This document shows positions 1,246 through 19,004 of a stretch of DNA of 32,488 nt, piece after piece. The translations under genes were made by a program, and so were the position numbers. How positions within the stretch are numbered: position 1 is the stretch's first letter; every line of letters starts with the position of its first letter. Under the pieces are notes generated by a model. It searched no databases. It was given only the letters and a program-made list of their open reading frames with translations, and had not been told where the DNA came from. Source of the stretch: a virus; the UHGV virus genome UHGV-0151217. One strand, given 5' to 3'.

Positions 1246-1378
1246 TTTTTCTTTCCTCTATAACTAGTTGATTTTAATTGCAAAAACCACATAAAGACCA
1301 AAATCAAAAAGAAAATACAAAGAAAGGGCTATTTTTGCTTTACATGGGCTACATATGGATCAATACTTGTATCCGAAG

Positions 1379-1400
1379 GGATAACACGGCGGTGTTATCC
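1379..1400. promoter_or_regulatory. Perfect inverted repeat in the repressor/ner divergent control region (candidate operator)
   Basis: GGATAACAC-GGCG-GTGTTATCC, a perfect 9-bp dyad, sits 28 bp upstream of the ner start and downstream of a TTTACA (1339-1344) candidate -35. Confidence 0.4.
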
Positions 1401-1427
1401 GCACGGATAATTTTTAAGGGTAACCTA

Positions 1428-3724: not shown

Positions 3725-4618
3725 ATGAGTTTAATTACGCAATTAAATGACGTAATGGCCCGTCGCGGCTATACGCAGACCCACGTCGCCCGTGCAATTG
3801 GTCGTAGCAGCGCCGTTATCAACCAGTATTTGCAGGGTAAATATCAGGGCGATATGGCTGATATTGAAGAACGCATTTCTGCCTTTGTGACCCGTGAGCG
3901 GGAAAAGGAAAACAGCCGCCGTATTAAAGCAAAGTTTGTGACCACCGGTATGGCTGCCAAAGGACTGGAGGTGCTGGCCTACGCTCACCTGGAATGTGAA
4001 ATCTGTGTGCTGTATGGCGCAGCTGGCCTTGGCAAAACAATGATTCTGCGTGAATACGCCGCCAGAAACCGGGATGCGGTCCTGATTGAGGCTGACCCAG
4101 GCTATACAGCCAGGACACTGCTTGAGGAGTTGTGCCGCCAGCTGGGGGTAAAGGTTCGCGGCAACATTCACGAACTGATTGATGCCTGTGTGCGCGAACT
4201 GCGTGATTCCGGTCGTCTGCTGATGGTGGACGAAGCTGAACTGCTCCCCTATCGCGCACTGGAGGTTCTGCGCCGTCTGCATGATAAAGCGGGTATCGGG
4301 GTTGTCCTGGCGGGTATGCCTCGTCTTCTGATTAATCTCAAGGGGCGTCGTGGTGAATTTGCGCAGTTATACAGCCGCGTGGCGCTGGCGCTTAACCTGG
4401 GCGACACGCTGGCGCAGGAAGATTTTAACCAGATAGCCACCGGGCTGATGCCGGAAGCAGCAGAACCGGAAATCAGCGAGGCGCTTTACGCGCGCTCGCT
4501 GGGTAATGCCCGCCGCCTGTTCAAACTGGCGCGCGGTGTGTACCGGATTTGCGATATCAGCGATGCGCCGGTCAGTGTGCAGGCCATAGATAAATTCGCA
4601 GAAATGTTAATTCACTGA
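3725..4618 (+). CDS. Transposition ATPase (MuB-like, AAA+)
   Basis: 297 aa with a Walker A motif (GAAGLGKT), a Walker B-like LLMVDEAE, and an N-terminal HTH-like segment. Directly follows the transposase. Confidence 0.85.
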   Translation: MSLITQLNDVMARRGYTQTHVARAIGRSSAVINQYLQGKYQGDMADIEERISAFVTREREKENSRRIKAKFVTTGMAAKGLEVLAYAHLECEICVLYGAAGLGKTMILREYAARNRDAVLIEADPGYTARTLLEELCRQLGVKVRGNIHELIDACVRELRDSGRLLMVDEAELLPYRALEVLRRLHDKAGIGVVLAGMPRLLINLKGRRGEFAQLYSRVALALNLGDTLAQEDFNQIATGLMPEAAEPEISEALYARSLGNARRLFKLARGVYRICDISDAPVSVQAIDKFAEMLIH

Positions 4619-8889: not shown

Positions 8890-9194
8890 ACCAGCAAACC
8901 AGAATAAGCGATAAGAGCCTGACCAGACTGATTGCCGATGCTGACAAAATGCTTGATATGCGCGGGCCGATTGTAGACAGAGAGTGGTGGACGCTCTTAC
9001 GGCAGTCCCTGCTGGAGCTTCAGGAATACCGGAGAGCAGGAATCATTCCGGTGACACCGGGAGCAAAAGAGCATCAGCTCAGGGAGCTGGTTAATAAATT
9101 ACGCGATGTGGCAATCAAATACCACGGAACGCAGCAATTACGGGCGCATATTGCAAAAACAGTAATCCGTTCAGGACTGATTTCAGGGGAATAA
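8886..9194 (+). CDS. Hypothetical protein
   Basis: 102-aa ORF from a GTG start overlapping the upstream stop (GTGA), with AGGAGG upstream. Confidence 0.5.
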   Translation: MNQQTRISDKSLTRLIADADKMLDMRGPIVDREWWTLLRQSLLELQEYRRAGIIPVTPGAKEHQLRELVNKLRDVAIKYHGTQQLRAHIAKTVIRSGLISGE

Positions 9195-9381: not shown

Positions 9382-9399
9382 TTAAATAATAACCAACAG

Positions 9400-9445
9400 C
9401 AGACCAAAACATATGTTTTGGTCTGCCAAAAATGATGTTTTGGTC
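9400..9445. promoter_or_regulatory. Operator-like site: 26-bp perfect palindrome plus a third half-site
   Basis: CAGACCAAAACAT|ATGTTTTGGTCTG (9400-9425) and a further GTTTTGGTC at 9437-9445, just downstream of an AT-rich -10-like stretch (TAATTAAATAAT) and directly upstream of ATG 9449. Confidence 0.4.
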
Positions 9446-9448
9446 ATT

Positions 9449-9727
9449 ATGAAGATTGAACAAATCGGAATGGCAGCTTTCAGGCAACAGGCTGAAAGCG
9501 GTGGCGTGGATGAGTTCGTCGTGCAGCGGTTCGGGGGTGTGTATCACCTCTTCGCTGTGAATCGCCGCGCCGGGGTGTCCTATTTTCTACAGGAACGCCG
9601 TGGCGATTACAAGACGTGGCTGTCTCTTGACCGTGCCGCCGCGTTCCTGTCGGGGATTGGTGTTTCACGTTTTACCGTGCGTTTTGAGGATAACAAACAT
9701 GCAGAAAAAGATGATCGGGGCCATTAA
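9449..9727 (+). CDS. Hypothetical protein (start uncertain)
   Basis: ORF open from 9413 with in-frame ATGs at 9413, 9449 and 9470 and no clear RBS. 3' end overlaps gemA by 29 nt. Confidence 0.4.
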   Translation: MKIEQIGMAAFRQQAESGGVDEFVVQRFGGVYHLFAVNRRAGVSYFLQERRGDYKTWLSLDRAAAFLSGIGVSRFTVRFEDNKHAEKDDRGH

Positions 9728-10207: not shown

Positions 10208-10675
10208 ATGCAGACCTTCAGTGAAACAGATCTTCGCGATGCGCAGGCACTGCTGCCCGATTCCGTGCAGCAACTGATTAGCGTGATTGGCTTCCCCGCC
10301 ATGACCCGGTTGATTCGTTCTTTTGGTGGCGTGACGTTAAGCGGTAAAACCGGCGCACACGCCGAACGTACTGGCGGTGTCCATGCCCTGTTACATGACG
10401 TGCTGACCGAAGACGAAATCAACAAACTGATCCGCTTTCTTGGCGGTGCTCCGTTTTACATTCCCCGTTGCGATCATGCGTTACGTGCTCTGCGTAACGC
10501 CCGTTTTATGGCTGATTTACAGCAGCATATCAGAGACGGATTTTCACACCGGCAGGCGCTGGCACTGCTTTGTCCCCGTTACGGGATTTCAGACCGGTAC
10601 GCATGGCAGCTGATACACCGACGACAAAAACAGACTTCGCTGAAAAGCCCCACCCAGGTGGGGCTTTTTGATTAA
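10208..10675 (+). CDS. Mor/C-family transcriptional activator of late (or middle) genes
   Basis: C-terminal LIRFLGGAPFYIPRCDHALRALRNARFMADL...YGISDRYAWQLIHRR aligns with the Mu Mor/C HTH region (...HLGGGQVYIPRG...). Which of Mor or C it corresponds to is unresolved. Confidence 0.8.
   Translation: MQTFSETDLRDAQALLPDSVQQLISVIGFPAMTRLIRSFGGVTLSGKTGAHAERTGGVHALLHDVLTEDEINKLIRFLGGAPFYIPRCDHALRALRNARFMADLQQHIRDGFSHRQALALLCPRYGISDRYAWQLIHRRQKQTSLKSPTQVGLFD
10646..10670 (+). terminator. Rho-independent terminator at the end of the Mor/C-family gene
   Basis: AGCCCCACC-CAG-GTGGGGCT hairpin followed by TTTTT, overlapping the last codons. Confidence 0.55.
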
Positions 10676-18851: not shown

Positions 18852-19004
18852 ATGACCAGAAGCGCGCTGTAATCGCTTCTGACGACATAAACGCCTCACG
18901 GATGAGGCATTGCAGCACCGCACCCCATAAATGCCGCCAGAATCGTTTTTAAAAGGGTTTTAAAAACGGTTTTATTTCCCCTTTTATCCTTTCCCGTTAT
19001 GGCA

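Follow-up and report, generated by a model that had tools for sequence, protein, structure and literature searches.

Organization of the locus

The window, i.e. the whole 32,488-nucleotide stretch of the viral genome UHGV-0151217 that was analyzed, starts in a host gene. Positions 1-266 belong to rhaR, of which only the first 44 codons are left, and the sequence enters a Mu-like transposable prophage at ~267. Members of this prophage family are inserted at many chromosomal positions in E. coli, as is expected of a transposable phage; the copy in EPEC E2348/69 is 90% identical. The genes follow in the order repressor, ner, A and B, with the repressor transcribed leftward (Table 1). The spacer between repressor and ner had been described in a first-pass annotation as a Mu-type divergent early control region, and this description is supported.

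The repressor contains a Phage_CI_repr helix-turn-helix (PF07022, residues 20-80) and matches phrog_3037, 'transcriptional repressor', with an E value of 2e-59. The Ner protein belongs to the HTH_35 family (PF13693, E 9e-26). Its matches in the PDB include EnrR (7f9h, E 6e-17) and Mu Ner (1ner, E 9e-13), and it is 43% identical to Mu Ner and 50% identical to D108 Ner. The same protein, WP_000989761.1, is encoded without change by all eight E. coli prophages compared. The early operon begins with ner, which the transposase genes follow, and an inverted repeat, the dyad, adjoins the upstream side of ner. The transposase of the window keeps the PF02316 Mu DNA-binding domain although the repressor of the window is without a Mu-type one. 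Closer to the left end, ATTCTGGGCG occurs in three exact direct copies, at 284-293, 358-367 and 409-418. The rest of the window has no copy, and the three probably serve the transposase as its binding sites at the left end.

Table 1. Positions of the genes and control elements discussed in the text
Feature	Position	Strand	Basis or remark
Repressor gene, 215 aa	598-1245	-	CI-type N-terminal helix-turn-helix, not Mu c type; ORF listing
Putative IHF site, core consensus AATCAACTAGTTA (WATCAANNNNTTR)	1261-1273	-	Only perfect match in the 32.5-kb window
Predicted early promoter Pe, -35 hexamer TTTACA	1339-1344	+	Sole promoter-like match in 500-1800
Predicted Pe, -10 hexamer AATACT	1362-1367	+	TTTACA-17-AATACT match; identical in 8/8 aligned E. 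coli prophages, both repressor types
Imperfect 40-bp palindrome around the core	1370-1409	.	Four alternating half-sites; repeat finder
Core dyad GGATAACAC-GGCG-GTGTTATCC, candidate Ner operator	1379-1400	.	Perfect 9-4-9 inverted repeat
ner Shine-Dalgarno-like AAGGG	1416-1420	+	Read from sequence; 7 nt before the ATG at 1428
ner gene, 78 aa	1428-1664	+	Ner/SfsB family helix-turn-helix
Mu-type transposase (MuA-like), 680 aa	1664-3706	+	PF09299, PF02316, rve; first early-operon gene after ner
MuB-like ATPase	3725-4618		Early operon, behind the transposase

The predicted early promoter and the position of the dyad

The only sigma-70-like match between 500 and 1800 is TTTACA-17-AATACT on the + strand. 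E. coli prophages with a second type of repressor have TTGTAA in place of TTTACA, at the same 17-bp spacing to the same AATACT, and this unchanged spacing supports the promoter assignment. More distant relatives, too, have a -10-like hexamer about as far from the dyad. From these positions we infer that early transcription starts at ~1374-1376. The core dyad begins 11 bp past the -10 hexamer and ends 27 bp before ner. It would thus occupy approximately +4 to +26 of the predicted early transcript, and the extended palindrome approximately -5 to +35. The dyad had been placed just downstream of a TTTACA -35-like hexamer. The hexamer is present, but the dyad does not lie between the two promoter hexamers; it is found beyond the -10 hexamer and the predicted start, in the transcribed leader.

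A nested palindrome

The sequence and the coordinates of the perfect 9-bp dyad are exactly as first annotated, with GGATAACAC at 1379-1387, GTGTTATCC at 1392-1400 and GGCG between the arms. Even with up to 3 mismatches allowed, the full pattern occurs once in 32.5 kb and in none of 100 dinucleotide shuffles. Perfect inverted repeats whose arms measure 9 bp or more and are separated by 10 bp or less number just 7 in the window, the core dyad included. When the 182-bp spacer between the repressor and ner was shuffled, an arm of at least 9 bp arose 48 times in 5000 (~1%).

The dyad was also said to be a single clean palindrome, and this part of the description does not hold. It is actually the core of a 40-bp imperfect palindrome, whose 18-nt arms (1370-1387 and 1392-1409) are 83% complementary. 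The palindrome is built from alternating half-sites, namely TATCC at 1370-1374, GGATA at 1379-1383, TATCC at 1396-1400 and GGATA at 1405-1409. These form three overlapping dyads: TATCC-GAAG-GGATA (1370-1383), the 9-4-9 core, and TTATCCG-CA-CGGATAA (1395-1410). The sequence TATCCNNNNGGATA occurs exactly twice in the window, both times inside the 40-bp palindrome. With one mismatch allowed it has 5 matches, a number that no shuffle reached.

Conservation of the dyad among related leaders

Relatives were collected through Ner scans of genomes, viral contigs and metagenomes, together with E. coli and phage records. The comparison set consists of 13 distinct leaders whose Ner proteins are 70-100% identical to that of the window. 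They come from E. coli, Edwardsiella hoshinae, E. anguillarum, two Sodalis assemblies, the Yersinia phage vB_YpM_5 and metagenomic contigs. Nine of these leaders have the core GATAACAC-N4-GTGTTATC intact; in a tenth, L163, the left arm shows 2 mismatches. The mean majority fraction across the 13 leaders is 0.95 for the right arm, 0.85 for the left arm and 0.62 for the 4-bp spacer, which exists in 7 variants. Four of the nine arm positions (pairs) are invariant. Arms that are kept while the spacer drifts are the kind of conservation that appears typical of a protein site.

The outer TATCC/GGATA half-sites are kept in most relatives, the Sodalis loci being the exception. There, the flanks cannot be aligned and the outer half-sites are lost, yet a perfect core is left (CCGATAACAC-ATCC-GTGTTATCGG). 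Divergence of the left arm to AGATTATCC in the vB_YpM_5 group leaves 5/9 positions symmetric; perfect symmetry is therefore not essential. In E. anguillarum the right arm has become GGATTATCC, bringing the symmetry back to 7/9.

An unbiased scan of IMG/VR for GATAACAC-N4-GTGTTATC found 10 Mu-like contigs, and the site is upstream of ner in all 10. The same scan gave 5 unrelated matches without ner or repressor homologues, a number at or below chance by a rough estimate, and so no new context for the motif was found in IMG/VR. A single unrelated 197-kb viral contig contains the core twice (L255 and L262). Each copy lies behind a terminator-like stretch with an ATG shortly downstream, and no ner or repressor homologue is nearby; the two copies may be an unrelated regulatory motif or due to chance. 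A strong dyad upstream of ner is not a rule of the wider family. Among 34 Ner-linked regions scanned (31 more distant loci together with L139, Mu and D108), such a dyad exceeded shuffles in 6, and the rule was rejected.

A possible role of the repeat as RNA

The repeat is transcribed in the predicted leader, where its arms could pair into a stem of 9 bp, closed by a loop of 4 nt and placed ~4 nt behind the 5' end of the early RNA. It might then protect the mRNA from 5'-end-dependent decay or modulate the translation of ner, and such a role may coexist with that of an operator. We regard it as unlikely that the repeat works mainly in this way. In a computed fold of the leader RNA, the dyad hairpin is predicted to be dominant (-19.1 kcal/mol, z -2.8). 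The arms are complementary in 90.6% of the cells of the alignment, compared to 26-56% when the partner is slid, and the sequence of the loop is free. Three arm pairs have changed on both sides, and several G-U cells are present. Compensatory changes, however, are equally expected of a symmetric protein site. The sequence of the arms is itself conserved, with the invariant pairs mentioned above, even beside flanks that cannot be aligned. In the Yersinia-phage group the stem is broken (5-6/9 pairs) but the half-site motif is kept. The flanking half-sites give rise to competing hairpins that have no obvious purpose in RNA, and the ribosome-binding site of ner is not sequestered in the predicted fold. 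A search of Rfam gave no match, with sub-threshold noise alone and none of it over the dyad.

An attenuator or intrinsic terminator formed by the stem at 1395-1410 and the following U run was considered separately. It is unlikely, as relatives do not keep the U run and a terminator was not called at this site. The TTTTT that follows 1410 is CTTTT in most relatives and is absent in L011.

The dyad varies with Ner

Natural exchanges of modules among the relatives separate the repressor from Ner. The window and L092 have identical Ner proteins (100%), repressors that are 58% identical, and the same dyad. Phage vB_YpM_5 and L110 also have identical Ner proteins (100%) and share the same variant dyad, with repressors that are 56% identical. 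Three Sodalis-type loci with Ner proteins at least 99% identical and repressors 42-53% identical have the same core. In L166, the repressor is nearest to the Yersinia-phage type, yet the Ner and the dyad are of the Sodalis type. Operator distance correlates with Ner distance with a Mantel r of 0.78, and with repressor distance with an r of 0.34. Judged from the sequences compared, the dyad variant tracks the class of Ner and not the CI-type repressor across these natural swaps. Linkage contributes to the pattern, since a dyad 27 bp from ner would be inherited together with it by linkage alone.

These exchanges bear directly on the leftward repressor, a dimer of which could use the dyad as its operator and block the early promoter in the lysogen. 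A CI-type helix-turn-helix protein would typically bind a dyad, and the position of the site over the start suits repression. The motif STLNNY is common to the presumed recognition helices of all related repressors, which makes a shared site conceivable. Against this stand the identical dyads found with repressors that are 42-58% identical, and the switch of the variant together with Ner in L166 and L110. Within the spacer, it is the left ~100 bp and not the dyad that differ from one repressor type to the other. The dyad is also present as a single copy, and there is no second or third operator of that sequence in the window. A repressor operator is thus improbable, even more so than a role mainly as RNA.

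A search with the repressor for nearly identical proteins that stand next to another Ner gave domain-swapped relatives only. In L243 (979-1557), and also in L242, the C-terminal half of the repressor is 70% identical to residues 97-215 of the window repressor. The N-terminus of these repressors resembles the Mu c / MuA N-terminal type and not the CI-type helix-turn-helix. The two prophages have a different Ner, of 67 aa, and TTTAAAC-type repeats in the spacer. Their sequences suggest that DNA-binding domains have been swapped on a shared C-terminal module of the repressor.

That the dyad serves some other protein, such as the N-terminal enhancer-binding domain of the transposase or the host proteins DnaA or LacI, or that it is a chance palindrome, is very improbable. 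The transposase has a PF02316 Mu DNA-binding domain, and in Mu the transpositional enhancer lies in this control region. In L243, however, the N-terminal domain of the transposase is 72% identical, the Ner is different and the dyad is missing, and in the Sodalis loci the domain is 46-47% identical and the dyad is kept. As far as the sequences can tell, the dyad does not track the N-terminal DNA-binding domain of the transposase, and an element of the Mu-type transpositional enhancer was rejected on the same comparison. A DnaA box was considered because TTATCCGCA at 1395-1403 fits 8/9 positions of TTATCCACA. It was rejected because positions 7-9, which are conserved in the box (TTATNCACA), vary in the relatives (GCA, GCG, GTC, GCC, GTA). 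The sequence GGATAACA equals a part of lacO1; a site for a LacI dimer was rejected because the orientation and the spacing of the half-sites, as read from the sequence, do not fit. The retention of the dyad across genera, together with the results of the shuffles, excludes a chance palindrome.

Comparison with Mu, D108, EnrR and lambda

In Mu, Ner is a Cro-like negative regulator of early transcription that also represses the repressor promoter. Inverted repeats are present at the corresponding position in both Mu and D108. D108 has a perfect repeat, CCGTGAGCTAC-TTTATAGC-GTAGCTCACGG, with an N8 spacer at 996-1025, 24 nt before ner, and this repeat comes after a TTGATT-17-TACATT promoter match. 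Mu has AGCTAGCTAAGT-TTTTAC-ACTTAGTTAAAT at 1029-1058, right behind TTTACA-17-TATCTT. We take these two repeats to be the Ner operators footprinted by Tolias, Kukolj and DuBow and by Goosen and van de Putte. A complex of D108 Ner with a 61-bp operator has reportedly been studied as well. In both phages, an inverted repeat lies 24-40 bp before ner, immediately after the early promoter, and the window is laid out alike relative to its predicted promoter. The single palindrome had been presented as a contrast with the O1-O3 operators of Mu. This contrast compares different elements, because Mu and D108 also carry a dyad at this place.

The likeness to D108 consists of a perfect inverted repeat right after the early -10, at 24 nt before ner in D108 and 27 nt in the window. 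The arm sequences are unrelated, and the architecture is 11-8-11 in D108 versus 9-4-9 in the window. The core of the window has extra flanking half-sites that extend it to 40 bp, and the repressor of the window is of the CI type instead of the Mu c type. Ner binding is demonstrated for D108; for the window, it is proposed by comparison. The likeness to Mu consists of a repeat that starts at ~+2 of Pe and of a -35 hexamer that is likewise TTTACA. The Mu operator has two 12-bp ANYTARCTAAGT repeats, inverted and separated by 6 bp (12-6-12), as opposed to 9-4-9. The Mu repeats are imperfect with a 6-bp perfect core, and their sequence is unrelated to that of the dyad of the window.

A structural precedent comes from EnrR, a xenogeneic silencing antagonist of Edwardsiella (7f9h/7f9i) and the closest solved structure to the window Ner (E 6e-17). 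In the crystal structure of EnrR with DNA, two Ner-family molecules occupy one self-complementary duplex through their helix-turn-helix motifs (PMC9023278). By analogy, a dyad could be bound by a pair of Ner-family molecules. EnrR differs in recognizing a compact CTATAG core in AT-rich DNA and in acting genome-wide. In our reading of the alignment, the base-contacting Arg47 of EnrR aligns with Asp40 of the window Ner, so the DNA specificity of the window Ner must differ from that of EnrR. The stretch around the recognition helix reads KKDSLKNALYR in the window, AARTLSNAMER in EnrR and APTTLANALER in Mu, as taken from the alignments, and these differences are compatible with another DNA specificity.

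The arrangement also resembles that of Cro and OR in lambda, with a small lytic-side repressor as the first rightward early gene, a dyad at its own promoter and a divergent CI-type gene opposite. In lambda, Cro and CI share three operators, whereas the dyad of the window is single and seemingly private to Ner.

A candidate Ner operator

The dyad is probably an operator for Ner, of a new specificity, through which the early promoter is repressed. The first-pass annotation had left the choice between a dimeric repressor and a Ner of different specificity. Ner is favored, as the dyad follows the Ner class and is positioned as in Mu and D108. The repressor is not, since repressors that differ as much as those compared above accompany the same dyad and since L166 combines the dyad with the Ner and not with the repressor.

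According to this model, Pe, with its -35 at 1339 and its -10 at 1362, would start transcription at ~1375, and Ner would be the first product. Two Ner molecules would bind the arms GATAACAC and GTGTTATC, and further copies could possibly bind to the flanking TATCC/GGATA half-sites. Bound at approximately -5 to +35, Ner would block the binding of RNA polymerase or its escape from the promoter. As a result, Ner would lower its own synthesis and the expression of the transposase operon, like the Ner proteins of Mu and D108. This is most likely an expected control element with a new sequence and not a new kind of switch, and the understanding of Mu-type switches is unchanged.

A more elaborate proposal is possible, and we consider it doubtful. 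The four or five alternating GGATA/TATCC half-sites have three overlapping dyad axes that are 13 bp apart. The 40-bp palindrome might be a cooperative array for several Ner molecules that extends from the -10 hexamer to +35. Its transcribed copy could double as a stabilizing hairpin at the 5' end, in which case a single sequence would work both as DNA and as RNA, and the boundary between the exchanged modules would run through Pe.

The Ner operator proposed here provides a concrete candidate site and half-site (GATAACAC) for an uncharacterised Ner clade. Members of this clade occur in a Yersinia pestis phage and in Mu-like prophages of Edwardsiella, Sodalis and E. coli, where EPEC E2348/69 is one of the carriers. 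In these phages the site of the lytic-side regulator is retained when the module of the lysogenic repressor is exchanged. A candidate site of this kind could be used for annotation, for predicting immunity and induction, and when transposable prophages are employed as tools.

The repressor-proximal half of the spacer

The IHF-type match at 1261-1273 precedes the start codon of the repressor by 16-28 nt. Of 15 related loci, 13 have it in the corresponding position with at most 1 mismatch, and its four N positions vary. It is probably the counterpart of the IHF site in the operator region of Mu, and IHF may bind to it. Part of the match could alternatively be read as a leftward -10. A second IHF match over the -10 of Pe (GATCAATACTTG) was rejected because it has 2 mismatches, the real consensus match being the one at 1261-1273. 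A scan of both strands for the leftward promoter of the repressor, with relaxed -35/-10 criteria, gave weak candidates alone (TTGGTC-19-TAAAAT, with the -10 at 1271-1276). The same scan gave no leftward promoter candidate in prophages with the second repressor type.

In the E. coli alignment, the sequence to the left of ~1350 (1246-1350) differs completely between the two repressor types. From 1354 to ner the types differ by single-base substitutions alone, with no change in the dyad or in the Ner protein. This pattern places a likely module boundary of the E. coli prophages inside the early promoter, just before the -10, so that the -10, the adjacent GATC and the Ner site would go with ner. 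If true, a boundary through Pe would let these phages exchange immunity and leave the Ner circuit intact. The -35 block does not go along with the repressor in every one of the more distant loci, L110 being a case in point.

AAAGAAA/TTTCTTT repeats are present upstream of the -35 in all loci and are candidate repressor operators. The operators of the repressor itself are probably located in the variable, repressor-proximal half of the spacer. The left ~100 bp also contain other repeats and the conserved IHF-type site; the control region is thus composite, and the dyad is a single element of it and not the whole operator.

A GATC (Dam site) at 1358-1361 abuts the upstream edge of the predicted -10 of Pe. 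GATC is found at -68 to -70 from the ATG of ner in 12 of 15 related loci, where the neighboring bases vary; Mu and D108 have no GATC at the corresponding position. By analogy with IS10, this site may couple early transcription to the state of methylation.

Other inverted repeats in the window

Three other inverted repeats of the window are also perfect. A 28-bp palindrome without a spacer, GCAGACCAAAACAT followed directly by ATGTTTTGGTCTGC, is present at 9399-9426. A third copy of its half-site lies at 9435-9445, 9 bp downstream of the palindrome. The palindrome is located in the gap behind an ORF ending at 9194 and extends with its right half into the start of the ORF listed at 9413-9727. It looks like a strong operator for some regulator. 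The perfect inverted repeat AAAAGCCCCACC-CA-GGTGGGGCTTTT at 10643-10668, at the end of the ORF at 10208-10675, looks like a bidirectional terminator. A further perfect inverted repeat, CGTTTTTAAAA-GGG-TTTTAAAAACG, is found at 18944-18968, ~18.7 kb from the left end of the prophage.
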